A stretch of DNA of 64,000 nt from Rhynchopus sp. YZ270_cl-10. Lineage: Eukaryota. Each line of letters begins with the position of its first letter. Positions within the stretch are counted from its first letter, which is position 1. The translations under genes were made by a program, and so were the position numbers. Below, piece by piece: positions 2,942 to 41,094 of the stretch. The DNA lies in the NCBI GenBank assembly GCA_964035575.1, contig OZ037838.1, forward strand, positions 1,302,001 through 1,366,000, read 5' to 3'. The notes under the pieces are model-generated. The model made no database searches and had not been told where the DNA came from. It was given only the letters and a program-made list of their open reading frames with translations.

Positions 2942-4051
2942 ATGGATGTGACCTTTGTGCTGGAAGAGTCAGGCGTGACTGCGACAGTGGAGGTGCCGTG
3001 CGAGGCGGACGCTGCAGCGGCAAAGGAGGTTGCGTGCACGGCGCTTGCTGTCTCGCCTGCGTCTGTCGAGATGCGCATCGGCACGCAGGTGCTGGAGGGG
3101 ACGTGCCGTCTGCAGGACACTGCGTTTGATTCAGGGGTGCAGGTTGTGCTTGCCCGCCGCTTTGCCAACATCAAGTGTCCTGCTGAGTATCGTGTACAGA
3201 GGGTGCAGAACTTATCGCTGTCTCGTTGTGGAACACTCTGTGTCTATGGTTGTTATGGTACGTTTGACAATGATTATGTTGCACATGTTGATGGCTTCGA
3301 CACAGAAACCTTCAACACTGCCTTCGCTTGTACTCTAGACAGTGGCTGCTTCATGTACGGTCCGCCTACCCTCTCACAGTGCAAAACATGCTGCTACGTG
3401 CCGTGTGGGGATGATTTACGCAAGGTTGCGCTTCCTGGTGGGCAGGTGCTCCGCAAACTCGACGTCCGCTCATACCTAGTATTTGCATGTGGCGGTGTTG
3501 TTGTCTCCAAAGGCAAAAACGGTCTCTCTGTGTATGACGAAGACCTGACGTTGCTCCGCACTCTCTCGCACAAGGATTGCAAGGACATGGCAGTGTCGGA
3601 CTGTGGTGGGTGGGTGATCACCTCCTCCTACAGTGAGAAGAACGCACGTCTGTGGGATGTGAACACAGGGGAAGCTGTAGCATGTGTGCCTGCGGGGGGC
3701 AAATACCAAGTGGCGCTTTCACGGCATGCCGCTGTCTTTGCTGTGGGAGGTGCTGACAGCATCCACCTCTATGACTGGGGAGGTACTGAAGTTCACAGGT
3801 CGATCGGAGGTGGGGAGGTGGGGTGCACGAAACTGCAGTTCACCCCGTGTGGGAAGTACGTTGTGTCTGCGACGCTAGCCGGCAACATAGAACATACACT
3901 GCACCAGTACGATGTGGCGACCATGTCCTGTGTGCGCGTGATCCCGAACGGCAGCTCTCTGTTTGCAATATCGCCGTGTTCACGTGTGGTTGTGTTTAGG
4001 AGTTTTGACGGCAACACCATTGAGACGAGACTTCTGTACCCACGTGAGTGA
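2942..4051 (+). CDS. Ubl-WD40 family copy 3
   Basis: Intact ORF from the conserved ATG at 2942, same architecture. Confidence 0.88.
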   Translation: MDVTFVLEESGVTATVEVPCEADAAAAKEVACTALAVSPASVEMRIGTQVLEGTCRLQDTAFDSGVQVVLARRFANIKCPAEYRVQRVQNLSLSRCGTLCVYGCYGTFDNDYVAHVDGFDTETFNTAFACTLDSGCFMYGPPTLSQCKTCCYVPCGDDLRKVALPGGQVLRKLDVRSYLVFACGGVVVSKGKNGLSVYDEDLTLLRTLSHKDCKDMAVSDCGGWVITSSYSEKNARLWDVNTGEAVACVPAGGKYQVALSRHAAVFAVGGADSIHLYDWGGTEVHRSIGGGEVGCTKLQFTPCGKYVVSATLAGNIEHTLHQYDVATMSCVRVIPNGSSLFAISPCSRVVVFRSFDGNTIETRLLYPRE

Positions 4052-5491
4052 GTGATGTTTGTTACGACTTGCCCGAGGCAGTGCCTGACGGAATCTCGGA
4101 GGGGTATTCGCACGTATTTGTATTTAGTAAACACGTAGTATGTGACAAAATGCTCGTGACCCTCGTGAAAAGTCGCGCGTCTGCGTATCCCCCTCCCCGC
4201 TTGTTTCCCCCCGCTCTCTTTTCTCCCCTCTGCTTCACGACACTTTCTGTACTTCAGGCAAACACAACAATACCGTAAATCAAGTCGAAGAAAAAGAACA
4301 GTGGAGATTGCACGTGGCAACACAACTGAGGCAACTACACTACTCCAACAATTTCAGGGAAATAGCTTGGGTACTTTTACTGGTTTCAAAACCAGAACGT
4401 TACTGGTTTGGGGGAAAATAAAAAAAAAAAGTGGGATTCGGGATTCAGTTTTTCTTCGCCCCCGCACCACTTTCCCACTCACAGAAGAAAGCCTCACACG
4501 TAAGCGAACCCCTAAAAAGGGTTCATTGAGTGACTCTGTGGTTTAAAAAGCTGTATGTTTTGCGCTATACCCTAATTTTTTTCGCCTGCGGCGCCACTTT
4601 ATATTATTTTTTTGCTCCGCAAAAAAATAGAGTTTACAATATCTTAGGGAACCCCCTTGCATTTTGCAGCCACAAATGCAACTTGACCAAAGATGCAAAA
4701 AGTTGACCGTTTTTTTTTTCAAAATGACCCACCGTTGCAACAGCCCCTGCTTCTGGAAGACGTATTGACTTTGTACGGTTAGTGGTAAGGTGCAAGACCA
4801 AGCTCCGTTAACACAGGATTATATTCCATTTTCTTTGTTGTCTCGCACCCTTTGCCTCTCCACTCTGTGGTTGGCAGGGAAGCGCGCGACGACCGCTTTC
4901 AACCGGGGAAAATTTTTTTCTAAACCAGCAAACCAGCAACATTCGAAAAGTGCACCTTTCAAGCTACTACCCTGAACAATTTATCAAAGAAGAAAAAAAA
5001 AGTGGAAGCGAACAACAAACAACCTTTACTTTTTTCCCCCCCCGTTTATAGTCTTTTGAGCAACAAGCAAAGAGGAACGAGTCTCTCGAGCATTTTCGGT
5101 TTACCTTCCACACATTTTTTTTTGGTTCTCTTCACGACACTATTTTTTCCACGATCATGGCATGACGCGCACTGCCCAGACGATTGCATGGAGTAGTACC
5201 CACCTCAAATAGACACGTGTAGTAGAGTGGAGCGAATGCTTGGGCTCAAATGACCATTTTGACCAAAAAAACAAATTGGATTTGAGACTGTGCCAGATGT
5301 TTACTGATCCAGATCGGTACAAAGGAACCACAACAACTGGTTTGACCACCCTTTACGAAGTTTACCTCTTTTTCGCTGTTACCTCGTTTGAACCCTCTCC
5401 TGTTGGGTGGAACTGCAGACACAACGAAAACATCAAACACACGCAACAAAACAACCCACACATCTCCTTCCTAACAGAGGAAGACAAAACC

Positions 5492-6614
5492 ATGGATGTG
5501 ACCTTTGTGCTGGAAGAGTCAGGCGTGACTGCGACAGTGGAGGTGCCGTGCGAGGCGGACGCTGCAGCGGCAAAGGAGGTTGCGTGCACGGCGCTTGCTG
5601 TCTCGCCTGCGTCTGTCGAGATGCGCATCGGCACGCAGGTGCTGGAGGGGACGTGCCGTCTGCAGGACACTGCGTTTGATGCAGGGGTGCAGGTTGTGCT
5701 TGCCCGCCCTCGCTTTGCCGACATCAAGTGTCCTGCAGAATATAATGTGCAGCAGTGTCGCTGGGTAGAGATGGACTGGCGCGTTGGTGGTACTGCGTTT
5801 TCGGAGTACGTATCGCTGTCGCGTTGTGGCGCACTCTGCCTCTACAGTGATGGCAGGCATGTTGGTGGCTTCGACACAGAAACCTTTCTCAATGTCTTCG
5901 ACCTCACAATGGCCTATCGTCCGTACCGTGCGCCTGCCATCTCGCAGTGCAAGACACGCTGTTACATGGCTTGTAGGGAACACTTAAGCGAAGTTGCGCT
6001 TCCGGGTGGGGAGGTGCTCCGCAAAGTTGACGGCATCTCGCGCTCAGTGTACGCGTGTGGCAGTGTTGTCGTCTCCCTGAGCCTACACGGGGTCTCTGTG
6101 TATGACGAAGACCTGACGTTGCTCCGCTCTCTCTCGCATTTGCAGTGCAGGAAAGCGGCAGTATCGGACTGTGGTGGGTGGGTGATCACCTGCTCCCTTC
6201 AGTGAGAAGAACGCACGTCTGTGGGATGTGAACACAGGTGAAGCTGTGGCATGTGTGCCTATCGAGGAGGAATACCACGAAGTAGCGCTTTCACGGTCTG
6301 CCTCTGTCTTTGCTGTGGGGGACTCTCACGAAGTACGGCTCTATGACTGGAGAGGTGAGGCTCTTCGCAGTGTTGATGTGGATGGGGATATCGACGACAT
6401 GCACTTCACACCATGTGGAAAGTACCTTGTGGTCAATGTTTTCAGTCGCCGAAGTTCTAAGCTGCAACAGTATGATGTGGCGACCCTTTCCTGTGTGCAT
6501 GTACTCACGGAAATAGGACGTATCGGGTTTGTGATATCGCCCTGTTCACGTGTCGTTGTGTTTCCGTCCAATAATCGTAAAAACATTGTGACACGCCACC
6601 TGTACCCAGAATAG
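5492..6614 (+). pseudogene. Ubl-WD40 family copy 4 with a single +1 frameshift (pseudogene or assembly error)
   Basis: TGCTCCCTTCAGTGAGAAG at 6191 versus TGCTCCTTCAGTGAGAAG in copy 9: one extra C at 6195-6197. ORFs 5240..6205 and 6228..6614 join into one full-length protein. Confidence 0.75.
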
Positions 6615-6875
6615 TTGGTGCCTGCGTGTGACGTTAGCCCTGTGCCACCAGAGTCGTCTACACCAGGAGCTCTGTCTTTGCTGTGGACATATTCATGTGC
6701 TCACTGCCCGTTCTATTTGGCCTTTGTGTTCAGCTTCCTTTCCTGTACTCAGAACTTTTACCCCGTCCAAACAAAAGACCCCCATCCTCTTTCCACGTGT
6801 CCACCCTCTCAGCTCCTTCAACTGTCCACCCAACAGAACATTAAATTACATCACACCAACACAGCTCTTGAAACA

Positions 6876-8012
6876 ATGATGGATGTGACCTTTGTGCTGG
6901 AGGAGTCCGGCGTGACTGCGACAGTGGAGGTGCCGTGCGAGGCGGACGTTGCAGCGGCAAAGGAGGTTGCGTGCACGGCGCTTGCTGTCTCGCCTGCGTC
7001 TGTCGAGATGCGCATCGGCACGCAGGTGCTGGAGGGGACGTGCCGTCTGCAGGACACTGCGTTTGATTCAGGGGTGCAGGTTGTGCTTGCCCGCCGCTTG
7101 GCCGACATCAAGTGTCCTGCTGAGTACAGTATTGAGGTGCCACCTGGAACGCATCGGATGTATCTACATCGCTTTTCGCTGTCTCCTTGTGGAGCACTCT
7201 GCCTCTGTACACATCAGCAAGGCTATGTCACCGGCCTCGATACAGAAACCTTCAGCCCTGCCTTCAAGTTCAAAGTAGACTTTGAGGTGCGCGGTGAGCC
7301 TGCCATCTCACGGTGCAAGACACGCTGCTACCTGGCGTGCAAGGAAGTCCTTCTCGATGTTGCGCTTCCGGGTGGGGAAGTGCTCCGTAAAGTCGACGGC
7401 ATCTCGCGCTCAGTGTTCGCGTGTGGCGGTGTTGTTGTCTCCCAAGGCGAAAGAAGCGTCTCTGTGTATGACGAAGACCTGACGTTGCTCCGCTCTCTCT
7501 CGCTCGAAGGGTGTGCGGACATAGCAGTGTCGGACTGTGGTGGGTGGGTGATGACCTCCTCCAACAAGGAGAACAACGTACGTCTGTGGGATGTGAACAC
7601 AGGTGAAGCTGTTGCATGTGTACCGTTGGGGGAGCGGCGCTGTAGAGTGGTGGCGCTTTTACGGTCTGCCTCTGTCTTTGCTGTGGGGCAGAAAGAAGTC
7701 CGGCTCTATGATTGGAGTGGTGAGGCTCTTCGCAGTATTGATGTGGATGGGTCTCTCGAGTCTGTGCAGTTCACCCCGTGTGGGAAGTACCTTGTGGTAT
7801 GTGGAGAGGTCCTGGTTCCTGTTGAGGGTGAATACGGAACTGAGTATGATGAGGATGGTTACCTGCACCAGTATGATGTGGCGACCATGTCCTGTGTGCG
7901 TGTAATATCTCAAGAGTCATATGTGTCCTTTGCGATATCGCCGTGTTCACGCGTTGTTGTGGGTATGCAGCCAGATGGTGTCATTGTGACGAGATATCTG
8001 TACCGTGAGTGA
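6876..8012 (+). CDS. Ubl-WD40 family copy 5
   Basis: Intact ORF from ATG 6876/6879, with a long acidic loop in blade 6. Confidence 0.88.
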   Translation: MMDVTFVLEESGVTATVEVPCEADVAAAKEVACTALAVSPASVEMRIGTQVLEGTCRLQDTAFDSGVQVVLARRLADIKCPAEYSIEVPPGTHRMYLHRFSLSPCGALCLCTHQQGYVTGLDTETFSPAFKFKVDFEVRGEPAISRCKTRCYLACKEVLLDVALPGGEVLRKVDGISRSVFACGGVVVSQGERSVSVYDEDLTLLRSLSLEGCADIAVSDCGGWVMTSSNKENNVRLWDVNTGEAVACVPLGERRCRVVALLRSASVFAVGQKEVRLYDWSGEALRSIDVDGSLESVQFTPCGKYLVVCGEVLVPVEGEYGTEYDEDGYLHQYDVATMSCVRVISQESYVSFAISPCSRVVVGMQPDGVIVTRYLYRE

Positions 8013-8366
8013 TGTATGACCAGGGGGAGGGGAGGGGGGGTGGTGATGAATATAACCCAGAGTCCCAGCAAAAAAACCCAAGCCTCTCATAACACCCCAA
8101 GAAACTCCCCTTTCAGCCCTGTTGCTGCTTTTCTCTTGTTTGCATGCCACAGGTCGCCCACCTTACACGCTGCCCATGCGGTGCTCTAGTGTGGGTGACA
8201 GATCACGATGCCGAGCATCATTTTCCATTCGTCACCTCTCACAACGAGAACCACCACAAACATGCAACACAGAACAACACCTCTCCCCCACCCACCTCAT
8301 CACTCCCTCCGTTTGTGGTGGAGCAAACGTGCTGATTTGCACCTTCTCACGAAGCAACGCAACACA

Positions 8367-9488
8367 ATGATGGATGTGACCTTTGTGCTGGAAGAGTCAG
8401 GCGTGACTGCGACAGTGGAGGTGCCGTGCGAGGCGAAGGTTGCAGCGGCAAAGGAGGTTGCGTGCACGGCGCTTGCTGTCTCGCCTGCGTCTGTCGAGAT
8501 GCGCATCGGCACGCAGGTGCTGGAGGGGACGTGCCGTCTGCAGGACACTGCGTTTGATTCAGGGGTGCAGGTTGTGCTTGCCTGCCGCTTTGCCGACGCC
8601 AAGTGTCCTGCTGAGTACACTGCAGCGCGTGCGACAGACTTGTTACTGTCGCGTTGTGGAGCGCTCTGCGTTTATAATTTTAATTCGCACGGGAGTGTGC
8701 ATGTTGGCGGCTTCGACACAGAAACCTTCGACACTATCTTCTCCTTTACAGTGGGCAATGTCGTGCACGGTGCGCCTGCCATCTCGCAGTGCAAGACACG
8801 CTGCTACCTGGCGTGTTGGAACGCAGGACTTCTCGAGGTTGCGCTTCCGGGTGGGGAGGTGCTCCGCAAAGTCGACAGCACCTCGTACTCAGTGTACGCG
8901 TGTGGCGGTGTTGTTGTCTCCGATGACAAAGACGGCGTCTCTGTGTATGACGAAGACTTGACGTTGCTCCGCTCTCTCTCGCACGAAGCGTGCGAGGACA
9001 TGGCAGTGTCGGACTGTGGTGGGTGGGTGATCACCTCCTCCAACAAGGAGAGGAACGTACGTCTGTGGGATGTGAACACAGGTGAATCTGTTGCATGTGT
9101 GCCGATGGAGGGGTGGTGTGGGGTGGCGCTTTCACGTTCTGCCTCTGTCTTTGCTGTGGATTGCTATACCACCGTGCACCTCTATGACTGGAGTGGTGCG
9201 GCTCTTGGCAGCTTTGATGTGGGTGGCAGTGTCAAGGGCATGCAGTTCACCCAGTGTGGGAAGTACCTTGTGGTGAGGGTTCGGGTTGTGCAACCTTTGG
9301 ATGATGGTGATTGCATTGTAGAGCGGCACCTGCACCAGTATGATGTGGCGACCATGTCCTGTGTGCATGAGATACCGCAAAGGTTTGTCGAGTCATTTGC
9401 GATGTCGCCGTGTTCACGTGTCGTTATGGTTTTGCAATCCAATGGCGTCATTGTAACGAGACATCTATACCCACACAACAGTGAGTGA
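8367..9488 (+). CDS. Ubl-WD40 family copy 6
   Basis: Intact ORF from ATG 8367/8370. Confidence 0.88.
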   Translation: MMDVTFVLEESGVTATVEVPCEAKVAAAKEVACTALAVSPASVEMRIGTQVLEGTCRLQDTAFDSGVQVVLACRFADAKCPAEYTAARATDLLLSRCGALCVYNFNSHGSVHVGGFDTETFDTIFSFTVGNVVHGAPAISQCKTRCYLACWNAGLLEVALPGGEVLRKVDSTSYSVYACGGVVVSDDKDGVSVYDEDLTLLRSLSHEACEDMAVSDCGGWVITSSNKERNVRLWDVNTGESVACVPMEGWCGVALSRSASVFAVDCYTTVHLYDWSGAALGSFDVGGSVKGMQFTQCGKYLVVRVRVVQPLDDGDCIVERHLHQYDVATMSCVHEIPQRFVESFAMSPCSRVVMVLQSNGVIVTRHLYPHNSE

Positions 9489-9903
9489 TGTGTTCCCAGA
9501 GAGGGTGGTGATGAATATACCCAGCAAAAAACAGACAAGTCCCCTTTTGTAGGTGGTATTGGGGGATAGGTATCATATTTGACACCTTAAATGTCCATAA
9601 TTGCCGTTTTTTTCCCTCTATTCACAACCACGAATTCACTGCGATTTGGAAACCCCTTACTCCGGGCCTCGACCTTCTGTTGTTGGCCGCAGGGTACGTG
9701 TGCTTTCATCCGGAGTGGTGGTGGAATCTTACGTGGGTCAGTCGGAGGTGCCTGCATCAATAACTTCAATCTCCTTTCCTACGACAAGAACCACCACAAA
9801 CATGCAACACAGAACAACACCTCTCCCCCACCCACCTCATCACTCCCTCCTGTGGTGGAGCAAACGTGCTGATTTGCACCTTCTCACGAAGCAACGCAAC
9901 ACA

Positions 9904-10983
9904 ATGGATGTGACCTTTGTGCTGGAAGAGTCAGGCGTGACTGCGACAGTGGAGGTGCCGTGCGAGGCGGACGTTGCAGCGGCAAAGGAGGTTGCGTGCA
10001 CGGCGCTTGCTGTCTCGCCTGCGTCTGTCGAGATGCGCATCGGCACGCAGGTGCTGGAGGGGACGTGCCGTCTGCAGGACACTGCGTTTGATGCAGGGGT
10101 GCAGGTTGTGCTTGCCCGCCCTCGCTTTGCCGACATCAAGTGTCCTGCTGAGTACAGTGCAACAGATGTGGAAAACTTGTCGCTGTCGCGTTGTGGAACG
10201 CTCTGCATCTATGTTCATCATAGGCATGTTGGCGGCTTCGACACAGAAACCTTCGACACTGTCTTCTCATTTGAAGTGGACACCAAAGTGATCCGTGGGC
10301 CTGCCATCTCGCAGTGCAAGACACGCTGCTACCTGCCATGTGGGGACTACCTACTCGAGGTTGCGCTTCCTGGTGGGGAGGTGCTCCGCAAAGTCGACGG
10401 CACCTCGATAGAAGTGTTCGCATGTGGCGATGTTGTTCTCTCCCAGGGCTTAGAAGGCGTGTCTGTGTATGACGAAGACATGACGTTGCTCCGCTCTCTC
10501 GCGCACGAGTTGTGCAGGAATGTAGCAGTGTCGCCCTGTGCTGAGTGGGTGATCACCTCCTCCTACAAGGAGAAGGAGGCACGTCTGTGGGATGTGAACA
10601 CAGGTGAAGCTGTTGCATGTGTACCTGCGCAGGGGTGGTGTAAAGTGGCGCTTTCACGGTATGCTTCTGTCTTTGCTGTGGAGGGGGTGGGAAATACCGT
10701 GCAGCTCTATGATTGGAGTGGTGCGGCTCTTCGCAGTGTTGATGTGGATGAGACAATCCGGGGCATGCAGTTCACACCATGTGGGAAGTACCTTGTGGTA
10801 AAGACTACATATGCGGGGCACCAGTATGATGTGGCGACCATGTCCTGTGTGCGTGTGTTCCCTGTCGTAGCTTTCTACTCTTCCTTTGCGATATCGCCGT
10901 GTTCACGTGTGGTTGTGTTCAAAGCAGCAAGAGGTGACACACAATGTGACGTTCTTTTCACTAGACATCTGTACCCCTACTGA
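9904..10983 (+). CDS. Ubl-WD40 family copy 7
   Basis: Intact ORF from ATG 9904. Confidence 0.88.
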   Translation: MDVTFVLEESGVTATVEVPCEADVAAAKEVACTALAVSPASVEMRIGTQVLEGTCRLQDTAFDAGVQVVLARPRFADIKCPAEYSATDVENLSLSRCGTLCIYVHHRHVGGFDTETFDTVFSFEVDTKVIRGPAISQCKTRCYLPCGDYLLEVALPGGEVLRKVDGTSIEVFACGDVVLSQGLEGVSVYDEDMTLLRSLAHELCRNVAVSPCAEWVITSSYKEKEARLWDVNTGEAVACVPAQGWCKVALSRYASVFAVEGVGNTVQLYDWSGAALRSVDVDETIRGMQFTPCGKYLVVKTTYAGHQYDVATMSCVRVFPVVAFYSSFAISPCSRVVVFKAARGDTQCDVLFTRHLYPY

Positions 10984-11248
10984 GTGATGCAGTCCACCCT
11001 GTGTGGGAAGTACCTCCTCGCTGTCGCTGAGTACTGCGGTGTGTTGCTATCGTGTGTTGCATCAGTATTTGCGTTGCACCCTCGACCTACTAGACTGTGA
11101 GGAAATTCATTTGTACGAGTATGTAATACGTCTGGAAATGAAGGACGCGCTCTTCGGTTGCCATGTGTCTTACCGTGTTCCCCTTCCCCCCTTTTGTTCT
11201 CCACCTCTCCCGTACTTCAGGACGCGGGGGTTTGAAAAATAAAATGAA

Positions 11249-12956: not shown

Positions 12957-14057
12957 ATGGATGTGACCTTTGTGCTGGAAGAGTCAGGCGTGACTGCGAC
13001 AGTGGAGGTGCCGTGCGAGGCGGACGTTGCAGCGGCAAAGGAGGTTGCGTGCACGGCGCTTGCTGTCTCGCCTGCGTCTGTCGAGATGCGCATCGGCACG
13101 CAGGTGCTGGAGGGGACGTGCCGTCTGCAGGACACTGCGTTTGATGCAGGGGTGCAGGTTGTGCTTGCCCGCTGCTGTTCCAACATCAAGTGTCCTGCTC
13201 AGTACAGTATCCGAGACAACGTGCCAAAGTTCTCATTGTCTCTTTGCGGAACACTCTGCGTCTTGACTGACGATGTCCGTAGTTCCTGTATCGGCTTCGA
13301 CACCGACACCTTCAACACTGTCTTCAAGTTTGAGGTCGCATCTGATGATCTCGGAACGCCTGCCATCTCACGCTGCAAGGCACGCTGCTACCTCTCGGGT
13401 TGGAGCAACTTACGCATGATTGCGCTTCCAGATGGGGAGGTGCTCCGCAAAGTCGACGACCTCTCGAGAGCAGTGTTCGCGTGTGGTGGTGTTGTTGTCT
13501 CCCAGGGTGATGACGGCGTCTCTGTGTATGACGAAGACCTGACGTTGCTCCGCTCTCTCACACACAAAGGTTGTGAGAAAGTAGCAGTGTCTGACTGTGG
13601 TGGGTGGGTGATCACTTGCTCCGATGTGGAGAACAACGCACGTCTGTGGGATGTGAACACAGGTGAAGCTGTTGCATGTGTGCCTGCGGATGGGGGGTAC
13701 GTGTCTGTTTCACGGTCTGCCTCTGTCTTTGCTGTGGGGGTGGACAACACCGTGCACCTCTATGACTGGAGTGGTGCGGCTCTTGGTCGCGTTGATGTAG
13801 GTGAGGCTACGGAAGGCATGCAGTTCACCCCGTGTGGGAAGTACCTTGTGGTCAAGATATATTACAAGATACAGGAGTATGATCGGAAATACGAGCTTCG
13901 CCAGTATGATGTGGCGAACACGTCCTGTGTTCGTGTGTTCCGGAATGTTGGCAGTTCATCGTTTGCGATATCGCCGTGTTCACGTGTGGTTGTGTGTCAG
14001 GAACGCCACTCCATAGTGACGAGACATCTTTGCACACACAACATACAACAACAGTGA
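12957..14057 (+). CDS. Ubl-WD40 family copy 8
   Basis: Intact ORF from ATG 12957. Confidence 0.88.
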   Translation: MDVTFVLEESGVTATVEVPCEADVAAAKEVACTALAVSPASVEMRIGTQVLEGTCRLQDTAFDAGVQVVLARCCSNIKCPAQYSIRDNVPKFSLSLCGTLCVLTDDVRSSCIGFDTDTFNTVFKFEVASDDLGTPAISRCKARCYLSGWSNLRMIALPDGEVLRKVDDLSRAVFACGGVVVSQGDDGVSVYDEDLTLLRSLTHKGCEKVAVSDCGGWVITCSDVENNARLWDVNTGEAVACVPADGGYVSVSRSASVFAVGVDNTVHLYDWSGAALGRVDVGEATEGMQFTPCGKYLVVKIYYKIQEYDRKYELRQYDVANTSCVRVFRNVGSSSFAISPCSRVVVCQERHSIVTRHLCTHNIQQQ

Positions 14058-25589: not shown

Positions 25590-26714
25590 ATGGATGTGAC
25601 CTTTGTGCTGGAAGAGTCAGGCGTGACTGCGACAGTGGAGGTGCCGTGCGAGGCGGACGTTGCAGCGGCAAAGGAGGTTGCGTGCACGGCGCTTGCTGTC
25701 TCGCCTGCGTCTGTCGAGATGCGCATCGGCACGCAGGTGCTGGAGGGGACGTGCCGTCTGCAGGACACTGCGTTTGATGCAGGGGTGCAGGTTGTGCTTG
25801 CCCGCCCTCGCTTTGCCGACATCAAGTGTCCTGCTGAGTACAGTGTAGAGTCGCCAACTGGTAGGCAAGGGAGGAACATACAATGTTTATCGCTGTCTCC
25901 TTGTGGAGCACTCTGCCTCTTTACACAGGAGGATGGCTATGTCACCAGCCTCGATACAGACACCTTCAGCCCTGCCTTCAAGTTCAAAGTAGACATTGAG
26001 GTGTACGGTGCGCCTGCCATCTCACGGTGCAAGACACGCTGCTATCTGCCGTGCAGGGAAGGCCTACACGTGGTTGCGCTTCCGGGTGGGGAGGTGCTCC
26101 GCAAGGTTGACGGCACCTCGTACCTCGTGTTCGCGTGTGGTGGTGATGTTGTCTCCCGTGGCGAAGGTAGCGTCTCTGTGTATGACGAAGACCTGACGTT
26201 GCTCCGCTGTCTCACACACGAAGGGTGCAACAAGTGGCGCGGGAGCGTGGCAGTGTCGCCCTCTGGTGGGTGGGTGATCACCTGCTCCTTCAGTGAGAAG
26301 AACGCACGTCTGTGGGATGTGAACACAGGTGAAGCTGTGGCATGTGTGCCTGCGGATGGGGGGTGTAAAGTGGCGCTTTCACGGTCTGCCTCTGTCTTTG
26401 CTGTGGAGTGCTCTGACAAAGTGCAGCTCTATGACTGGAGTGGTGCGGCTCTTGGCAGCTTGGAAAAGGAGCAGTCTCACGTCTGTGCCGTGCAGTTCAC
26501 TCCATGTGGGAAGTACGTCGTTGTTGCGTTTGAGAGGGGTGAAATATTTTGTGAAGAGTACACTCTGCACCAGTATGATGTGGCGACCATGTCCTGTGTG
26601 CGTGTGATACAGGACACCGAAGGTGTATTTGCGATCTCGCCGTGTTCACGTGTGGTTGTGTTCAGGGCAGCAGGAGGTGACGTCCTTGTCACAAGACATC
26701 TGTACCCCTACTGA
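25590..26714 (+). CDS. Ubl-WD40 family copy 9
   Basis: Intact ORF from ATG 25590. Confidence 0.88.
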   Translation: MDVTFVLEESGVTATVEVPCEADVAAAKEVACTALAVSPASVEMRIGTQVLEGTCRLQDTAFDAGVQVVLARPRFADIKCPAEYSVESPTGRQGRNIQCLSLSPCGALCLFTQEDGYVTSLDTDTFSPAFKFKVDIEVYGAPAISRCKTRCYLPCREGLHVVALPGGEVLRKVDGTSYLVFACGGDVVSRGEGSVSVYDEDLTLLRCLTHEGCNKWRGSVAVSPSGGWVITCSFSEKNARLWDVNTGEAVACVPADGGCKVALSRSASVFAVECSDKVQLYDWSGAALGSLEKEQSHVCAVQFTPCGKYVVVAFERGEIFCEEYTLHQYDVATMSCVRVIQDTEGVFAISPCSRVVVFRAAGGDVLVTRHLYPY

Positions 26715-27025: not shown

Positions 27026-28144
27026 ATGATGGATGTGACCTTTGTGCTGGAAGAGTCAGGCGTGACTGCGACAGTGGAGGTGCCGTGCGAGGCGGACGTT
27101 GCAGCGGCAAAGGAGGTTGCGTGCACGGCGCTTGCTGTCTCTCCTGCGTCTGTCGAGATGCGCATCGGCACGCAGGTGCTGGAGGGGACGTGCCGTCTGC
27201 AGGACACTGCGTTTGATGCAGGGGTGCAGGTTGTGCTTGCCTGTCGCTTTGCCGACATCAAGTGTCCTGCTGAGTACAGTGTAGCGGCGCCGTTGTCTTC
27301 TCACATTTCACTCTCACGTTGTGGGACGCTTTGTGTCTTCTCTAGCCCTTTGTTTGGGCAGTTTTTCGGATTAGAGACAGAAACCTTCGAGACTGCCTTC
27401 AAATTCAAAGTAGACATTGAGGTGTGCGGTGAGCCTGCCATCTCACGGTGCAAGACACGCTGCTACCTGGCGGGCGAGGGAGATCTTCTCGAGGTTGCGC
27501 TTCCGGGTGGGGAGGTGCTCCGCACAGTGGACTGCTCGTCAAAGGCAGTGTTCGCGTGTGGCGTTGTTGTCTCCCAAGGCAAAGACGGCGTCTCTGTGTA
27601 TGGCGAAGACCTGACGTTGCTCCGCTCTATCTCGCACGAAGGGTGCAGGCGCGTAGCAGTATCGGACTGTGGTGGGTGGGCGATATCCTCCTCCGCCTTG
27701 GAGAAGAACGCACGTCTGTGGGATGTGAACACAGGTGAAGCTGTTGCCTGTGTTCGTTTGGTTGGGGGCACCTACCAAGTGGCGCTTTCCCCGTCTGCCT
27801 CTGTCTTTGCTGTGGTGTGCTCTGACAAGGTGCAGCTCTATGACTGGAGTGGTGTGGCTCTTCGTAGTGTTGATACGGAAAGACGGGAGGTGGGGCAGAT
27901 GCAGTTCACACCGTGCGGAAAGTACCTTGTGGTCAGAACCTCTTTGCTCTTATTCGATGGTGACTCTTTTCTGTGTGATAAGGAGCACGAACTCCGTCAG
28001 TATGACGTGGCGACCATGTCCTGTGTGCGCGTGATCCCGAAGAGCGGCACTCTATTTGCGATATCACCTTGTTCACGTGTGGTTGTGTTCCGGTGTGGCG
28101 GAGTGGTGAAGACGAGACATCTTCACCCTTACAGCAGGGACTGA
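27026..28144 (+). CDS. Ubl-WD40 family copy 10
   Basis: Intact ORF from ATG 27026/27029. Confidence 0.88.
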   Translation: MMDVTFVLEESGVTATVEVPCEADVAAAKEVACTALAVSPASVEMRIGTQVLEGTCRLQDTAFDAGVQVVLACRFADIKCPAEYSVAAPLSSHISLSRCGTLCVFSSPLFGQFFGLETETFETAFKFKVDIEVCGEPAISRCKTRCYLAGEGDLLEVALPGGEVLRTVDCSSKAVFACGVVVSQGKDGVSVYGEDLTLLRSISHEGCRRVAVSDCGGWAISSSALEKNARLWDVNTGEAVACVRLVGGTYQVALSPSASVFAVVCSDKVQLYDWSGVALRSVDTERREVGQMQFTPCGKYLVVRTSLLLFDGDSFLCDKEHELRQYDVATMSCVRVIPKSGTLFAISPCSRVVVFRCGGVVKTRHLHPYSRD

Positions 28145-28246
28145 GGCTTTGCCGTGCGCGAGGTGTAGCTCTTGCCCACTTCCACTTCCACTCCTTCTTG
28201 GCGGCGTGTGAGACGCGTCGCCAAGAAGCCCCTCTAGTGCCTAGGT

Positions 28247-28716: not shown

Positions 28717-29930
28717 ATGGATGTGACCTTTGTGCTGGAAGAATCAGGCGTGACTGCGACAGTGGAGGTGCCGTGCGAGGCGGACGTTGCAGCGGCAAAG
28801 GAGGTTGCGTGCACGGCGCTTGCTGTCTCGCCTGCGTCTGTCGAGATGCGCATCGGCACGCAGGTGCTGGAGGGGACGTGCCGTCTGCAGGACACTGCGT
28901 TTGATGCAGGGGTGCAGGTTGTGCTTGCCCGCCCTCGCTTGGCCGATATCAGGGTGGCGCGTTCCCCTGCAAGTGTCCTGCTGAGTACACATGCTTCGGA
29001 GTGTTTGAGCACCATATTTGCACATTCTCGTTGTCTCCTTGTGGAACGCTCTGTCTCTATTTCTTCCAAAGCCATTCAGCCTCGGACGGAAGGATATTCT
29101 TCTCCATCTTTGACACTGAAACCTTCGAGTTGGTGTTCAAGTTTGAAATCGACTACGGAGAGTATCGCGAGTGCAAACTAGGTAGAGCTGCCATCTCACG
29201 GTGCAAAACACGTTGCTACATCCCGTATGATTGCTACCCCCACAATAGTGGTTTTCTGCAGTGTGTTGCACTTCCGAGTGGAGAGGTGCTCCGCAAAGTT
29301 GAGCGCACCTCGAGAGCAGTGTTCGCATGTGGCGATGTTGTTCTCTCCGAAGGCGAAGACGGCGTCTCTGTGTATGACGAAGACCTGACGTTGCTCCGCT
29401 CTCTCTCGCACAAGCATTGTAGGCACGCGGCAGTGTCGCGGTGGGTGGGTGACCACCTACTCCAAGAAAGAGGACGACGTACGTCTGTGGGATGTGAACA
29501 CAGGCGAAACTGTGTCATGTACACAGGTGGAGTTGTGGTGTGGCCACTGGTGCATTGGGGTAGCGCTTTCGCGGTCTGCTTCTCTCTTTGCTACGGGGGT
29601 CTCTTTCGGAATACAGCTCTATGATTGGAGTGGTGCGGCTCTTCGCAGTGTCGATGTGGATGAGAGCATCCGGGGCATGCAGTTCACCCCGTGTGGGAAG
29701 TACCTTGTGGTCAGTATCCGAACGGTCAAGGTGGATGTTTTTCTGGAACCTACGGAAGATAGCACTGATGATGTGGATGACGATGATGATTGTTACGCTA
29801 TTGACTGACGGAACTCCGCCAGTACGATGTTGCAACCATGTCGTGTGTGCATGTGATACAAGAAGTCTGTGAGTCGTTTGAGATATCGCCGTGTTCACGT
29901 GTGGTTGTGTTTGCGGAGGTGGGGACAACC
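28717..29930 (+). pseudogene. Ubl-WD40 family copy 11 (three frameshifts)
   Basis: A 20-nt insertion at 28950-28969, a ~5-nt deletion at ~29439, a frameshift and stop at ~29806-29810, and loss of the TRHLYP terminus. Confidence 0.85.
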
Positions 29931-31096: not shown

Positions 31097-32236
31097 ATGA
31101 TGGATGTGACCTTTGTGCTGGAAGAGTCAGGCATGACTGCGACAGTGGAGGTGCCGTGCGAGGCGGACGTTGCAGCGGCAAAGGAGGTTGCGTGCACGGC
31201 GCTTGCTGTCTCGCCTGCGTCTGTCGAGATGCGCATCGGCACGCAGGTGCTGGAGGGGACATGCCGTCTGCAGGACACTGCGTTTGATGCAGGGGTGCAG
31301 GTTGTGCTTGCCCGCCCTCGCTTTGCCGACATCAAGTGTCCTGCTGAGTGCAGTGTAGAGGCGCCACCTGGAAGGACAACTGGTGGTCAGCGGATGAATC
31401 GATTAACGCTGTCACCTTGTGGAGCACTCTGCCTCTTTACACAGGAGGATGGCTATGTAACCGGCCTCGATACAGACACCTTCAGCCCTGCCTTCAGGTT
31501 CAAAGTAGACTTTGAGGGGTACGCTGTGCCTGCCATCTCACGGTGCAAGACACGCTGCTACCTGGTGTCCTGGGAAGGTCTGCACGAGTTTGCGCTTCCG
31601 GGTGGGGAGTTTCTCCGCAAAGTCGACGGCACCTCGTTCCAAGTGTTCGCCTGTGGCAGGGTTGTTGTCTCCCGTGGCGAAGACGGGGTCTCTGTGTATG
31701 ACGAAGACCTGACGTTGCTCCACACTCTCTCGCACGAAGGGTGTGGGTGTGTGGCAGTGTCGGACTGTGGTGGGTGGGTGATCACCTCCTCCTACAAGGA
31801 GAGGAACGCACGTCTGTGGGATGTGAACACAGGTGAAGCTGTGGCATGTGTGCCTGCGGATGGGGGCATCGTGGCGCTGTCACGGTCTGCCTCTATCTTT
31901 GCCGTGGAGTGCTCTCTGGCTGAGAAAGCGCAGCTCTATGACTGGAGTGGGGCGGCTCTTGGCAGCTTTGAAAAGGAGGAGTCTCGCGTATGTGCCGTGC
32001 AGTTCACTCCATGTGGGAAGTACGTCGTCGTTGGGTTTGATAACAATGATGTTCGATATTGTGGAGAGTATACTCTGCACCAGTATGATGTGGCGACCAT
32101 GTCCTGTGTGCGTTCGATACAGGACAGCAAAGGTGTATTTGCGATCTCGCCGTGTTCACGTGTGGTTGTGTCCAAGGCAGCAGGAGGTGACGCAGGAGGC
32201 GACGTCCTTGTGACACAACATCTGTACCCCTACTGA
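31097..32236 (+). CDS. Ubl-WD40 family copy 12
   Basis: Intact ORF from ATG 31097/31100; closest to copy 9. Confidence 0.88.
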   Translation: MMDVTFVLEESGMTATVEVPCEADVAAAKEVACTALAVSPASVEMRIGTQVLEGTCRLQDTAFDAGVQVVLARPRFADIKCPAECSVEAPPGRTTGGQRMNRLTLSPCGALCLFTQEDGYVTGLDTDTFSPAFRFKVDFEGYAVPAISRCKTRCYLVSWEGLHEFALPGGEFLRKVDGTSFQVFACGRVVVSRGEDGVSVYDEDLTLLHTLSHEGCGCVAVSDCGGWVITSSYKERNARLWDVNTGEAVACVPADGGIVALSRSASIFAVECSLAEKAQLYDWSGAALGSFEKEESRVCAVQFTPCGKYVVVGFDNNDVRYCGEYTLHQYDVATMSCVRSIQDSKGVFAISPCSRVVVSKAAGGDAGGDVLVTQHLYPY

Positions 32237-32779: not shown

Positions 32780-33844
32780 ATGGATGTGACCTTTGTGCTG
32801 GAAGAGTCAGGCGTGACTGCGACAGTGGAGGTGCCGTGCGAGGCGGACGTTGCAGCGGCAAAGGAGGTTGCGTGCACGGCGCTTGCTGTCTCGCCTGCGT
32901 CTGTCGAGATGCGCATCGGCACGCAGGTGCTGGAGGGGACGTGCCGTCTGCAGGACACTGCGTTTGATGCAGGGGTGCAGGTTGTGCTTGCCTGTCCTCG
33001 CTTGGCCGACATCAAGTGTCCTGCTCAGTACACTGCAACGCATGTGGGACCCTTGTCACTGTCGCCTTGTGGAACGCTCTGCGTCTATAGTAGCAGGGAT
33101 GGGCATTTTGATGGTTTCGACACAGAAACCTTCGACACTGTCTTCTCGTTCATACTGGACACTCTAGTGTCCGGTCTGCCTGCCATCTTACAGTGCAAGA
33201 CACGCTGCTACTTGGCGTGTGAGAATTGCCTTCTCGAGGTTGCGCTTCCTGGTGGGGAGGTGCTCCGCAAAGTTGACGGCACCTCGAACGCAGTGTTCAC
33301 GTGTGGCGGTGTTGTTGTCTCGAAGGGCGAAGACGGCGTCTCTGTGTATGACGAAGACCTCACGTTGCTCCGCTCTCTCTCGCACAAAGGGTGCACGACC
33401 ACGGTAGTGTCTGACTGTGGTGAGTGGGTGATCACCTCCTCCCTCAGTGATCAGAAGTCCCGTCTGTGGGATGTGAACACAGGTGAAGCTGTGGCATGTG
33501 TGCCTTCGGGGTGGTTGCCTAGAGTGGCGCTTTCACGGTCTGCCTCTGTCTTTGCTGTGGGGCAGGGTGAAGTCCACCTCTATGATTGGAGTGGTGCGGC
33601 TCTCTGCAGTGTTGATGTGCGTGGGGATATCCAGGGCATGCAGTTCACCCCGTGTGGGAAGTACCTTGTGGTAAGGAATCTAAACGAGCTGCACCAGTAT
33701 GATGTGGCGACCATGTCCTGTGTGCATGTGATACCGCATAGGGAGGTTATGTCCTTTGCAATATCGCCGTGTTCACGTGTTGTGGTTTTGCAACGAGATC
33801 GCGTCATTGTGACGAGGCATCTGTACCCACACAACAGTGAGTGA
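32780..33844 (+). CDS. Ubl-WD40 family copy 13 (shortest loops)
   Basis: Intact ORF from ATG 32780. Confidence 0.88.
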   Translation: MDVTFVLEESGVTATVEVPCEADVAAAKEVACTALAVSPASVEMRIGTQVLEGTCRLQDTAFDAGVQVVLACPRLADIKCPAQYTATHVGPLSLSPCGTLCVYSSRDGHFDGFDTETFDTVFSFILDTLVSGLPAILQCKTRCYLACENCLLEVALPGGEVLRKVDGTSNAVFTCGGVVVSKGEDGVSVYDEDLTLLRSLSHKGCTTTVVSDCGEWVITSSLSDQKSRLWDVNTGEAVACVPSGWLPRVALSRSASVFAVGQGEVHLYDWSGAALCSVDVRGDIQGMQFTPCGKYLVVRNLNELHQYDVATMSCVHVIPHREVMSFAISPCSRVVVLQRDRVIVTRHLYPHNSE

Positions 33845-34368
33845 TGTGTGAGGGGAGGGGAGGGAGGGAAGTGATGAAAAAACCCCAGGGTACCAGCAAA
33901 AAAACCCAAGACCCTCAACACACCCCCAATAAACTCCCCTTTCAGCTCTGTTGCTGCCTTTCTCTTGTTTGCCTCACAGGTCGCCCACCTTACACGCTGC
34001 CCATGCGGCGCTCTCGTGTGGGTGACTGATCACGATGCCGAGTATCATTTTCCTTTCATCACCTCCCACAACAAGAACCACCACAAACATGCAACACAGA
34101 ACAACATTTAGCAGCAGTTTCCGTTTTCCCCACTCTAGCCCCTCCCCGCACATGCATTTTGCACTAACGGTGCCAATTGAAAACAGATTCCTCCCTCATT
34201 CTCCCCCCTTTTGCTTTTGCTTGATTTCTTTAGCCTCTAAGAGTACGATCAGAAACCCCACACAAATTTGCAACACAGAACAACACCTCTCCTCCACCTC
34301 ATCACTCCCTCCGTTTGTGGTGGAGCAAACGTGCTGATTTGCACCTTCTCACGAAGCAACGCAAAACA

Positions 34369-35481
34369 ATGATGGATGTGACCTTTGTGCTGGAAGAGTC
34401 AGGCGTGACTGCGACAGTGGAAGTGCCGTGCGAGGCGGACGTTGCAGCGGCAAAGGAGGTTGCGTGCACGGCGCTTGCTGTCTCGCCTGCGTCTGTCGAG
34501 ATGCGCATCGGCACGCAGGTGCTGGAAGGGACGTGCCGTCTGCAGGACACTGCGTTTGATGCAGGAGTGCAGGTTGTGCTTGCCCGCCCTCGCTTTGCCA
34601 ACATCAAGTGTCCTGCTGAGTACACTGTAGGTGTAGAGGTGATACCTGGAATGCATGAAGGGAGTGTATATGAATTTTCGCTGTCTCCTTGTGGAGCACT
34701 CTGCCTCTTTGCACAGGAGGAAGGCAATGTGACCGTCCTCGATACAGAAACCTTCAGCCCTGCCTTCAAGTTCAAAGTAGACATTGTGGTGTGCGGTCCT
34801 CCCGCCATCTCACGGTGCAAGACACGCTGCTACATGGCGAGTAGGAATTGTCTTGCCAAGGTTGCGCTTCCGGGTGGGGAGGTGCTCCGCAAAGTCGATG
34901 GCAACTCGTACGCAGTATTCGCGTGTGGCGGTGTTGTTGTCTCCCAAGGTGACGACGGTGTCTCTGTGTATGACGAAGACCTGACGTTGCTCCGCTTTCT
35001 CTCGCATAAACGGTGCAGGGACGTGGCAGTGTCGGACTGTGGTGGGTGGGTGATCACCTCCTCCAACAAGGAGAAGAACGCACGTCTGTGGGATGTGAAC
35101 ACAGGTGAAGCTGTGGCATGTGTGCCTGCTAATAGGATCGTGTCGCTTTCACGATCTGCCTCAGTCTTTGCTGTGGTGTGTAACGAAGTGCAGCTCTATG
35201 ACTGGAGTGGTGCGGCTCTTCGCAGCTTTGCAAATGCAGGTCAAAAAATTTCTGGCCTGCAGTTCACTCCCTCCGGGAAGTATCTCGTTGTACGGTTGAT
35301 GGATGTGGGTGCTGAAAAATATTCACTGCACCAGTATGATGTAGCGACCATGTCCTGTGTGCGTGTGTTACCGGCCTCCGACGACTGCGGCCAGTTTACG
35401 ATATCGCCGTGCTCACGTGTGGTACTATTTACGAACAGCAAACGAGACGCTATTGTGACGAGACATCTGCACCCCTACTGA
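34369..35481 (+). CDS. Ubl-WD40 family copy 14
   Basis: Intact ORF from ATG 34369/34372. Confidence 0.88.
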   Translation: MMDVTFVLEESGVTATVEVPCEADVAAAKEVACTALAVSPASVEMRIGTQVLEGTCRLQDTAFDAGVQVVLARPRFANIKCPAEYTVGVEVIPGMHEGSVYEFSLSPCGALCLFAQEEGNVTVLDTETFSPAFKFKVDIVVCGPPAISRCKTRCYMASRNCLAKVALPGGEVLRKVDGNSYAVFACGGVVVSQGDDGVSVYDEDLTLLRFLSHKRCRDVAVSDCGGWVITSSNKEKNARLWDVNTGEAVACVPANRIVSLSRSASVFAVVCNEVQLYDWSGAALRSFANAGQKISGLQFTPSGKYLVVRLMDVGAEKYSLHQYDVATMSCVRVLPASDDCGQFTISPCSRVVLFTNSKRDAIVTRHLHPY

Positions 35482-36451: not shown

Positions 36452-37336
36452 TTTTGAGCCGTACTGTATTGTGCCAATTGGTCGCCAGCTAAAATGTCAC
36501 TATTCGAACCAGTTCTGTCTTCTGTAACGTGTCTTATGGGTGCATGCTGCGTGCGCTGGCTGTAATTGCGATATTTTGATTCAAATTGTATTGTACTAAT
36601 TGGTCGCCAGCTAAAATGTCACTAATCGAACTAGTTCTCACATCTGTAACCTGTCTTATGGCTGTATGCTGCGTGCGCTGGCTGCAATTGCGATATTTTG
36701 AGAAGAATTGTATTGTACTAATTGGTCGCCAGCTAAAATGTCACTATTCGAACCAGTTCTGTCTTCTGTAACGTGTCTTATGGGTGCATGCTGCGTGCGC
36801 TGGCTGCAATTGCGATATTTTGAGTCAGATTGTATTGTACTAATTGGTCGCCAGCTAAAATGTCACTATTCGAACTAGTTCTGTCTTCTGTTACCTGTCT
36901 TATGGCTGTATGCTGCGTGCGCTGGCTGCACTTGCGATATTTTGAGTCAGATTGTATTGTACTAATTGGTCGCCAGCTAAAATGTCACTATTTGAACCAG
37001 TTCTGTCTTCTGTTACCTGTCTTATGGGTGTATGCTGCGTGCGCTGGCTGCAATTGCGATATTTTGAGTCGAATTGTATTGTACTAATTGGTCGCCAGCT
37101 AAAATGTCACTATTTGAACCAGTTCTGTCTTCTGTAACCTGTCTTATGGGTGCATGCTGCGTGCGCTGGCTACAATTGAGATATTTTGAGCCGAATTGTA
37201 TGGTACTACTTGGTCGCCAGCTAAAATGTCACTATTCGAACCAGTTCTCACATCTGTAACCTGTCTTATGGGTGCATGCTGCGTGCGCTGGCTGCAATTG
37301 CGATATTTTGATCCGAATTGTATTGTGCTAATTGGT
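36452..37336. repeat. 122-bp tandem satellite A, ~7.2 copies
   Basis: Units start at 36465, 36587, 36709, 36831, 36953, 37075, 37197 and 37319. Confidence 0.95.
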
Positions 37337-37339
37337 TAT

Positions 37340-37893
37340 GAAGGGACGTGTCTTATTCTTGCGGTATATTTTGGATGATATCGGCTACGCTGCGGTGCTC
37401 GCAACAGCTGGGGGTGGTGGTGGAGATGTGATGCAGGTGCTGACATTGAGGTAAAGAACAAGGACGCTGCGTGTTGAGAAGGTGTCGGTCAGAGCAGGTG
37501 CGGAAGTGTGTGTCACAGACAACAATCGAAACACATGTCTTATCCTTGCGGCACATCACACCGAGACTGTACGCACTCTTCTGTGCCTGCCTGAGGTGGA
37601 TTGTGTGAATCAGTCAAATACGAGCGGCTTCACTCCACTGCATGGCGCAGTGTCACAGAAACACCCAGATGTGTCGAAGTTGCTCATTGATGCAGGGGCA
37701 GACATCGAAGCCGTTAATTACATAGGCAGGACACCTCTTCACTGTGCTTGTGAGGTTGGGGCACTCGAAATTGTGGAGATGTTGGTGAAAGCAGGTGCGG
37801 ACGAGAGTGTGGTGGACAACAAGAGTCACACATCTCTCAACATTGCGGCATATCGTGGGCATACCGAGACTGTGCGCTATCTTGTGGGCTTGC
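37340..37893 (+). pseudogene. Ankyrin-repeat gene fragment captured in the transposon
   Basis: GFTPLHGAV...LLIDAGADIEA, GRTPLHCAC...LVKAGAD and TSLNIAAYRGHTETVRYLV motifs; no ATG start; truncated by the internal TAGGGGGTCTC end. Confidence 0.8.
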
Positions 37894-37979
37894 TAGGGGG
37901 TCTCCTGGTCAGTATATTAGCTGTCCGAAAAATTAGTAAATAAATATAAAATGCTCTATGTGCTCAGAAACGGCATAAC

Positions 37980-38256
37980 TTGACATGTGTTTATGGAATT
38001 GGTCCCGTACCAAGGTGTCTTGTTCGGTGTGATTTGTGCTGAAATGGATAGATTCTGAGGGTAAATGCTGCAAGCGCTAGGTATTCCGTGACGCAAATAA
38101 ATTGACATGTGTTTGTGGATTTGGTCCCGTACCAAGGTGTCTTGTTGGATGTGATTTGTGCTGAAATGGATAGATTCTGAGGGTAAATGCTGCAAGCGCT
38201 AGGTATTCCGTGACGCAAATAAATTGACATGTGTTTGTGGAATTGGTCCCGTACCA
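37980..38256. repeat. 122-bp tandem satellite B, ~2.3 copies
   Basis: TGACATGTGT recurs at 37981, 38103 and 38225. Confidence 0.92.
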
Positions 38257-39473: not shown

Positions 39474-39963
39474 GAAGTGCCATTTCTCCCTGCTGAAACA
39501 AAACTCGCGCACGCCACCAAATTTCCAGTGTCCGCAGTGTCGCACCACTTATTTTTTTCGCATTTTGAGGGGGGGGAAATGCAAAATGAAAACAAAATTT
39601 TGGTAGATTCACAGAATTCAGATTTTTGCTAAGGTGCTGGCAGCTGGCCCCAAAAAAAAAAAAAAAATATTTTCCCCCCACATTTTTTGGTCCAGGGTCA
39701 CAAAAAAAAATCTCCGATTCCTGAAACCCCAAATCCTGGCGGAAACCCTGCCGGGGGGGGAAAAACAAAAAAAAAAAATTTTGTTTTTTTTGACAAAAAC
39801 GGCCAAAAACGACAAAATAGTTTTTACGACAAAAATTCCTTCACAAATTGTACAGGATGAGACCCCCTACTCCACTCAGGCGTAACGCAAACATCACAAA
39901 CACACAAAACAAAACTACACACCTCATCTCCCAACAGAGGTGGAACAAGAAGAAGACAAAACA

Positions 39964-41094
39964 ATGGATGTGACCTTTGTGCTGGAAGAGTCAGGCGTGA
40001 CTGCGACAGTGGAGGTGCCGTGCGAGGCGGACGTTGCAGCGGCAAAGGAGGTTGCGTGCACGGCGCTTGCTGTCTCGCCTGCGTCTGTCGAGATGCGCAT
40101 CGGCACGCAGGTGCTGGAGGGGGCGTGCCGTCTGCAGGACACTGCGTTTGATGCAGGGGTGCAGGTTGTGCTTGCCCGCCGCTTTGCCGACATCAAGTGT
40201 CCTGCTGAGTACAATGTTTGTGTGAGGGAGGCAGAATTTTTGTCGCTGTCTCCTTGTGGAGCACTCTGCCTCTATTGTTATGAGATATGTGCTGGTGGCG
40301 ATTACGTTGCGCATGTTGGTGGCTTCGACACAGAAACCTTCAACGCTTCATTAGCTTTTTCAGAAGGCAACAGCCTTTTCATGTACGGTCCGCCTGCCAT
40401 CTCACAGTGCAAGACGCGCTGCTACCTACCGTGTGGGCAAGACTTACGCAAGGTTGCGCTTCCTGGTGGGGAGGTGCTCCGCAAAGTTGAAGGCCGCTCG
40501 TACGCAGTGTTCGCGTGTGGTGGTGTTGTTGTCTCCCAAGGCAATGACGGAGTCTCTGTGTATGACGAAGACCTGACGTTGCTGCGTTCTATCTCACACA
40601 AGAGTTGTGAAGGCTTGGCAGTATCGGACTGTGGTGGGTGGGTGATCACCTCCTCGAAGGAGAGGAACGCACGTCTGTGGGATGTGAACACAGGTGAAGC
40701 TGTGGCATGTGTGCCTATGTCAAGGTACGCTGTAGCGCTGTCACGGTCTGCCTCTGTCTTTGCTGTGGTGGGCTCTGTGGCTGAGGCAGCGAGAGTGCAG
40801 CTCTACGACTGGAGTGGTGCGGCTCTTCAGAACGCCACTATATCTGGAAGTGTCTATGGCGTGCAATTCACCCACTGTGGGAAGTACCTTGTGGTCCATG
40901 TACAAAAGCGCACTGACGATGAAGCAGAATATGAGCTGCAACAGTATGATGTGGCGACCATGTCCTGTGTACTTGTGATCCCGGACGTCACCGGTGCGTC
41001 ATTTGCGATATCACCGTGTTCGCGTGTGGTTGTGTTCGTATCCTCCGACAGCACCAATATTTCGACAAGGCATCTGTACCCCCACAACGAGTGA
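39964..41094 (+). CDS. Ubl-WD40 family copy 15
   Basis: Intact ORF from ATG 39964; its 3' part and downstream spacer closely match copy 1. Confidence 0.88.
   Translation: MDVTFVLEESGVTATVEVPCEADVAAAKEVACTALAVSPASVEMRIGTQVLEGACRLQDTAFDAGVQVVLARRFADIKCPAEYNVCVREAEFLSLSPCGALCLYCYEICAGGDYVAHVGGFDTETFNASLAFSEGNSLFMYGPPAISQCKTRCYLPCGQDLRKVALPGGEVLRKVEGRSYAVFACGGVVVSQGNDGVSVYDEDLTLLRSISHKSCEGLAVSDCGGWVITSSKERNARLWDVNTGEAVACVPMSRYAVALSRSASVFAVVGSVAEAARVQLYDWSGAALQNATISGSVYGVQFTHCGKYLVVHVQKRTDDEAEYELQQYDVATMSCVLVIPDVTGASFAISPCSRVVVFVSSDSTNISTRHLYPHNE

Follow-up and report, generated by a model that had tools for sequence, protein, structure and literature searches.

Mosaic ancestry of tandem genes encoding a constant head and a predicted WD40-like propeller in the genome of a probable diplonemid

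Results

A tandem array of head-propeller genes

The window, by which we mean the whole 64,000-nt stretch of DNA analysed here, carries 15 tandem copies of a gene encoding a short head followed by a propeller, all on the plus strand, as located by tblastn with one copy as query. The copies, which keep the numbers given to them in the initial annotation, fall into three groups (1-14057, 25590-35481 and 39964-41094); 12 are intact, two are broken and one is cut by the window edge. The intact copies are open reading frames of 354-378 aa, and every window reading frame of at least 330 aa is likewise on the plus strand. The first group holds the intact copies c02 (926..2056), c03 (2942..4051), c05 (6879..8012), c06 (8370..9488), c07 (9904..10983) and c08 (12957..14057), the second c09 (25590..26714), c10 (27029..28144), c12 (31100..32236), c13 (32780..33844) and c14 (34372..35481), and the third c15 (39964..41094). 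Only the C-half of c01 (1..501) lies inside the window; a full protein containing this C-half is P0018 among the predicted family proteins described below. The reading frame of c04 (5492..6614) is shifted by one extra base near 6194-6198, and the same frameshift is present, with 0 differences and at a depth of ~100, in a contig piece (6169-6225) of run X4, a piece that extends fewer than 31 letters to each side of the lesion and comes from a run that may be the source sample. c11 (28717..29930) is a pseudogene: 20 nt are inserted near 28950, 5 nt are deleted, a stop interrupts the frame and the 3' end is missing.

The first 71 codons of every copy form the head (213 nt; 32780..32992, plus strand, in c13), in which mean nucleotide identity between copies is 98.6%. 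The head has a pS of 0.022, whereas the propeller has 0.30, or 0.21 if only its invariant residues are considered; constraint on the protein does not account for identity at silent sites. The window heads gave no significant match in Pfam, including the ubiquitin clan, in PDB or in fold searches, and the head model was of low confidence, with PB1 as its best fold match (E 0.72). Heads have diverged in distant paralogues, and six of 12 such relatives gave weak matches to ubiquitin-clan Pfam families at the aligned N-terminus (E 7e-5 to 0.039), none of which reached the cut-off. Judged by these sequence matches, the head is probably ubiquitin-like.

Residues 71-376 of c15 were modelled by AlphaFold2 from a 98-sequence alignment as a seven-blade propeller, with pLDDT mostly above 90. 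The best folds for this model were G-beta and WDR5 (Foldseek E about 1e-15; 13-21% identity), and Pfam WD40 families matched the propeller only below cut-off. The model thus predicts a WD40-like propeller of seven four-stranded blades, and the blades within one gene are dissimilar to each other. When the variability of the alignment was placed by hand on the model strands, the variable, indel-rich stretches corresponded to the D-A and B-C loops, and the A-B and C-D turns were nearly fixed; the variable loops are accordingly predicted to sit on the top face of the propeller. A Pfam search of these proteins detected no NACHT, F-box, NB-ARC or LRR domain, and no signal peptide or membrane anchor was evident when the sequences were judged by eye; the protein looks cytosolic.

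A large family in one assembly

A single assembly encodes at least 120 members of the family to which the window copies belong, since the best 120 of 414 matches in a protein search are all part of this family. These 120 predicted proteins, a list ranked by likeness to c15 and hence biased toward that copy, with counts made by eye, are 64-76% identical to c15 (c15 itself aside). Ninety-nine are encoded by the 2.71-Mb contig that contains the window, another 16 by a contig of 457 kb and five elsewhere; 117 are singletons at 90% identity. Further full-length relatives, 50-57% and about 30% identical, came from an exhaustive search, and the ten of these that we looked up were ENA singletons on other contigs. 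Family relatives were not found in metagenome and viral contigs, Rfam gave no match, and the Atlas returned generic WD40 leads only. The literature that we searched does not describe the family, and the accessible main text of the Diplonema papillatum genome report, supplements aside, has 0 mentions of WD40 or ubiquitin (PMC10161547); the family and its architecture are apparently undescribed so far. An EF-hand phosphatase gene flanks the array, and the best named relative of its product is from D. papillatum (65% identity, 338 bits; next named relative, 217 bits), so that the host is likely a diplonemid.

The propellers do not fit a single tree

The initial annotation of the window had proposed that segments are shuffled between copies. 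We examined this proposal over 813 gap-free propeller sites in 13 copies, excluding the partial c01 and the multiply broken c11; the alignment contains one artificial codon, where c04 is frameshifted. PHI was 0.809, against 0.864 under permutation (p=0.0002, 5000 permutations), and was also significant at third positions alone (p=0.0006). None of 100 single-tree simulations in which site rates were kept in place was as extreme. A 3SEQ-like scan found z>4 in 86 of 871 triplets, whereas 40 simulations gave 1.6 such triplets on average and never more than 10. The best corrected p in the triplet test was 7e-5, and 14 of the 25 top triplets passed Bonferroni correction, with c05 as the child in nine, c12 in two and c09, c14 and c15 in one each. 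Fitting separate trees to four contiguous quarters gained 63.8 lnL, a value reached in 0 of 60 codon permutations (gain 20.5) and in 0 of 60 simulations (gain 5.7), the simulations being free of lineage-specific rate shifts, convergence and misalignment beside gaps. Distances in different propeller segments were poorly correlated (Spearman -0.38 to 0.40). A single tree is rejected by PHI, the triplet test and the quarter trees alike; instead of congruent blade trees free of breakpoints, the data are incongruent beyond chance, and the copies are of mosaic ancestry. The best segment matches are mostly 80-93%, and the window mosaics are mostly old.

Individual mosaics and their flanks

Five examples of mosaic copies had been put forward in the initial annotation: two of them stand, two are genuine but weak, and one fails. 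The clearest mosaic of the window is c05 (exact p 4e-8 in the triplet test), which is like c14, c09 and c12 at ~7092-7286 and like c02, c06 and c13 at ~7579-7962, and which is c13-like from blade 5 through the 3' flank (8013..8279, plus strand), where it matches the 3' flank of c13. Copies c05, c09, c12 and c14 had been thought to have blades 1-2 in common and to diverge downstream. This was borne out for c05 and also for c14, whose blades 1-2 are like those of the other three and whose C-half matches P0073, a protein with another type of blade 1, but it does not apply to c09 and c12, which are sisters downstream (87-93% nucleotide identity) except for a middle tract (~26170-26290 in c09, 31683-31803 in c12). 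The c09 version of this tract has a 4-aa insertion that is also found in c01, P0009, P0017 and P0021.

The proposed origin of c15, with blades 1-2 like those of c03 (~40213-40533) and a C-half like that of c01 (~40714-41094), was confirmed only once P0018 supplied the N-half of c01. With P0018 standing for c01 and columns counted by eye, c15 agrees through blade 3 with c03 alone in ~20 columns and with c01 alone in five, and from blade 5 with c01 alone in 33 and with c03 alone in five. The match of c15 to c01 extends over 40613-41473 and 17-906, respectively, at 88.6% identity, and includes ~380 nt of 3' flank (41095..41473, plus strand, after c15). From the window DNA alone the c15-c03 relationship is borderline (72% and 81% nucleotide identity, z +0.4 and +1.1; corrected p 0.046-0.068). 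The C-half of c03, in turn, had been likened to that of c10. We could not confirm this resemblance: the last three segments gave z of -0.9, -2.0 and +0.9, and the two copies were grouped only in the last-segment tree (UFBoot 75).

The suggested connection between c02 and c08 is visible as a stretch of 77 nt (~1719-1795 in c02) that is identical in c08, within a segment of 91% identity; however, the corrected p is 0.11 and similar loops are frequent in the family, so the match could reflect common ancestry. Likewise, c07 and c11 do match, at 45 of 48 nt around one loop, but the match is too short to call. One switch that the initial annotation did not point out is that of c07, whose last blade turns to the c09/c12 type and is followed by a non-coding 3' flank (10984..11227, plus strand) that is nearly identical to the 3' flank of c12, giving ~250 non-coding bases common to the two. 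Non-coding flanks thus accompany the swapped segments in c05/c13, c07/c12 and c15/c01.

Mosaics also occur elsewhere in the family. Among the 120 listed proteins, the best of 414 matches, multi-residue N- and C-module types are joined in each of the four possible ways; counted by eye, seven proteins have both the SPAF-type blade 1 and the NAT-type C-end, 10 have SPAF only, 17 have NAT only and 86 have neither. P0088 has an N-half of the P0062 type, and its last 138 residues match P0063 at 135. P0123 consists of two adjacent copies read as one protein, with 81 of 83 middle residues in common, and P0100 combines the N-half of the first of these copies with the C-half of the second, as unequal crossing-over would be expected to produce. 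P0027 contains an internal duplication. The exchanged tracts are as short as one loop or as long as half a gene, and some are old, others recent.

These cases bear on the possibility that there was no exchange, and that a rapid, star-like burst of duplication, together with convergence and uneven rates, produced the appearance of mosaics. The tree is indeed star-like, with internal branches making up 11% of its length, so that mosaic parents are uncertain; several motifs cited in the initial annotation are single loops; and the codon-shuffled real data conflict more than the simulations in the quarter-tree test (20.5 against 5.7), which indicates model misfit. However, PHI is significant at third positions, and convergence is an implausible source of 135 identical residues out of 138 behind a different N-half, or of non-coding flanks held in common. 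Given PHI, the triplet and quarter-tree tests, P0088 and the c07/c12 flank, this explanation is largely refuted and we regard it as scarcely credible.

False mosaics could also have arisen by chimeric assembly of paralogues. The 213-nt head and some short blocks are near-identical, and no Logan contig is long enough to cross a conserved block, so that these contigs do not confirm linkage across the blocks. On the other hand, identical stretches in the 2.7-Mb contig do not exceed a few hundred bases, unique pieces agree with public runs with 0 differences, and the window mosaics are 7-20% off their best parents, both of which a chimera should match without differences. An assembly origin is therefore improbable.

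The head as a probable point of exchange

The initial annotation had further supposed that conserved blocks act as crossover points. Copies c05, c09, c12 and c14 have one blade-1 type and four different 5' flanks, and the 5' flank of c03 also precedes a different propeller, in P0084; the head is linked neither to the 5' flank nor to the propeller type. Near-identity at silent sites, together with 5' flanks that are unlinked from blade 1, points to gene conversion at the head. We infer that conversion homogenises the head, which offers the longest block of homology, and that exchange often takes place there; selection on head DNA or RNA would be an alternative explanation of its identity. Crossover within conserved blocks in general is plausible and is best seen at this invariant head, with the reservation that blocks without informative sites draw inferred breakpoints by default.

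Broken copies as proposed donors

In Trypanosoma brucei, VSG mosaics are assembled segmentally from donors of at least ~73% identity, and 43 of 103 mosaic donors were pseudogenes in the part of the study available to us (PMC3708902). The initial annotation had suggested that the broken copies serve as donors in the same way, and one could envisage antigenic variation in which, within a cell lineage, an expressed copy receives segments from silent or broken ones. In its favor, the D. papillatum relative of the flanking phosphatase indicates that the host, too, is likely a euglenozoan, the copies are ~75-80% identical and thus inside the VSG donor range, and two broken copies are present. The VSG mosaics, however, are described as forming in the expressed gene during infection from a silent, pseudogene-rich archive (PMC3708902). 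Here only two of the 14 complete copies in the window are broken, most copies are intact, all carry the same head and each has a start of its own, all mosaics are fixed in the genomic array and assembly, and the protein, lacking an evident signal peptide or anchor, looks cytosolic. By eye, no long tract identical to c04 or c11 was seen in intact genes among the best 120 of 414 matches; the c07/c11 loop was the only segment of this kind that was seen, and the direction of transfer is unreadable from one genome. The donor role proposed for the pseudogenes was thus not upheld, and a VSG-like system is very unlikely.

Discussion

Our analysis leads us to propose, with a probability of roughly 70%, that the copies are mosaics produced by repeated position-matched exchange within arrays, which likely reshuffles top-face loops behind a constant head. 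Tandem copies would trade position-matched segments through inherited unequal crossing-over and gene conversion, exchange would keep reshuffling the predicted top-face loops behind the probably ubiquitin-like head, and conversion would homogenise the head at silent sites. The shuffling likely varies a putative binding surface and likely arose between copies over evolutionary time. By analogy with the systems discussed below, the products may form an intracellular repertoire of binding modules or substrate adaptors whose heads dock one common partner, and the diversity could be maintained by conflict with parasites, viruses or ingested bacteria. More tentatively, a free-living diplonemid may possess a library resembling immune receptors, with hundreds of proteins combining a ubiquitin-like head and a WD40 propeller, in which the head would serve both for effector docking and as a recombination anchor and the face would be reshuffled at a pace sufficient for isolates to differ; we consider this extended scheme possible but doubtful.

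The same recombination could also lack an adaptive purpose, the arrays having expanded by drift, with shuffling as a by-product of homology between tandem copies and loops that vary only through weak constraint. The propeller-wide dN/dS of 0.75, an average that is not above 1, is in keeping with this interpretation, as are the shuffling of spacers as well as genes (c11 has a hybrid 5' flank), the two broken copies among 14 complete ones, and the tolerance of propeller loops in general to change. Against it, the variation is one-sided, being concentrated in the D-A and B-C loops with the opposite turns nearly fixed; frames remain open in 12 of the 14 complete copies despite numerous in-frame indels; and at 90% identity 117 of the 120 listed proteins cluster with no other. 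We therefore view a purely non-adaptive origin as rather unlikely and favor position-matched exchange that varies a putative binding face.

Diplonemids are abundant marine flagellates whose defence biology is little known. With at least 120 propellers, ~99 of those listed on one contig, in which a conversion-locked head is joined to a shuffled putative binding face, the family is a concrete candidate for how a diplonemid cell recognises changing partners. Exchange among tandem paralogues as a genetic process is already well known. Plant NLR and Cf-type clusters and expanded F-box families are tandem birth-and-death arrays with exchange between paralogues, and they combine a constant adaptor with a variable binding surface, although their domains differ from those found here. 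The family works like HET-E repeats, Crinkler headers and plant resistance clusters, and is not a member of the first two. Clustered protocadherins, as described in the text available to us, are likewise tandem paralogues in which a conversion-homogenised region near-identical at silent sites adjoins a divergent specificity region, but they are cell-surface cadherins spliced to constant exons, and the homogenised part is 3' (PMC1852091).

The Podospora HET-D/HET-E (NWD) proteins also contain a WD40 propeller diversified by exchange within a family, and the sites reported there to be under selection belong to the d-a loop and b-c turn at the top of the propeller, the same top-face loops that are predicted to vary here (PMC1805685). 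Those proteins are NACHT-type receptors of a 10-member family, as far as that account goes, in which near-identical repeats swap among any positions (PMC1805685), whereas in the present family the blades of a gene differ from one another, segments are exchanged between whole genes at matching positions, neither a NACHT nor a HET domain is found, and there are at least 120 members. Crinkler/CR proteins offer a parallel for the head, having a conserved ubiquitin-like N-terminal header, the end of which is a proposed recombination hotspot, and a variable C-terminus; in the source consulted these C-termini are unrelated toxin domains delivered to the host (PMC5289972). In contrast, no Crinkler Pfam match was obtained for the present proteins, and the same propeller stands behind every header examined: in a search that is weak for divergent headers, the propeller directly followed the header in all six longer proteins that carry it.

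Variation among family proteins outside the window

Protein searches of the same assembly identified predicted proteins that share the near-constant head and the WD40-like propeller of the tandem family, and several of these carry additional sequence. Four of them (P0124-P0127) have in common an almost identical C-terminal extension of ~270-360 aa, and the N-terminal parts of the propellers that precede this extension differ among these proteins. A Pfam scan of P0124 gave no match to the extension. In P0128 the additional sequence lies upstream of the head and propeller and comprises a weak B-box together with another ubiquitin-like region (FERM_N, E 0.003); this arrangement could be a genuine TRIM-like fusion or read-through from gene calling. 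An internal duplication of ~75 aa was seen in blades 1-3 of P0027, and two separate stretches of P0249 aligned to the search query.

Other genes and repeats in the window

Between the first and second groups of family copies (14886-23120) lie an intron-containing EF-hand phosphatase gene and genes for a U-box membrane protein and an amidohydrolase. A 123-nt piece of the amidohydrolase gene (22214-22336) is 96% identical to the spacer 3' of copy c10 (28247-28368), and the spacers upstream of copies c08 and c13 have a 214-nt piece in common (12458-12671 and 32510-32716; 93%). Two identical 164-aa ORFs lie on opposite strands at 62319-63009, which suggests an inverted duplication; this pair was absent among the window self-BLAST matches listed.

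Downstream of the last copy, c15, are a dynamin-like GTPase, an HROB OB-fold and weak F-box-like ORFs (41551-48519), followed by two long membrane-receptor-like ORFs (50979-53909 and 57337-60195). The C-termini of both have what we take to be an adenylate-cyclase-like look; Pfam returned no cyclase match for either ORF, and the second showed a weak Cache match. Tandem repeats with a period of 122 bp occupy 36452-37336 and 37975-38256, with an ankyrin ORF fragment between them (37455-37943), and other arrays have periods of 87 (55368-56202) and 8 (12247-12336).
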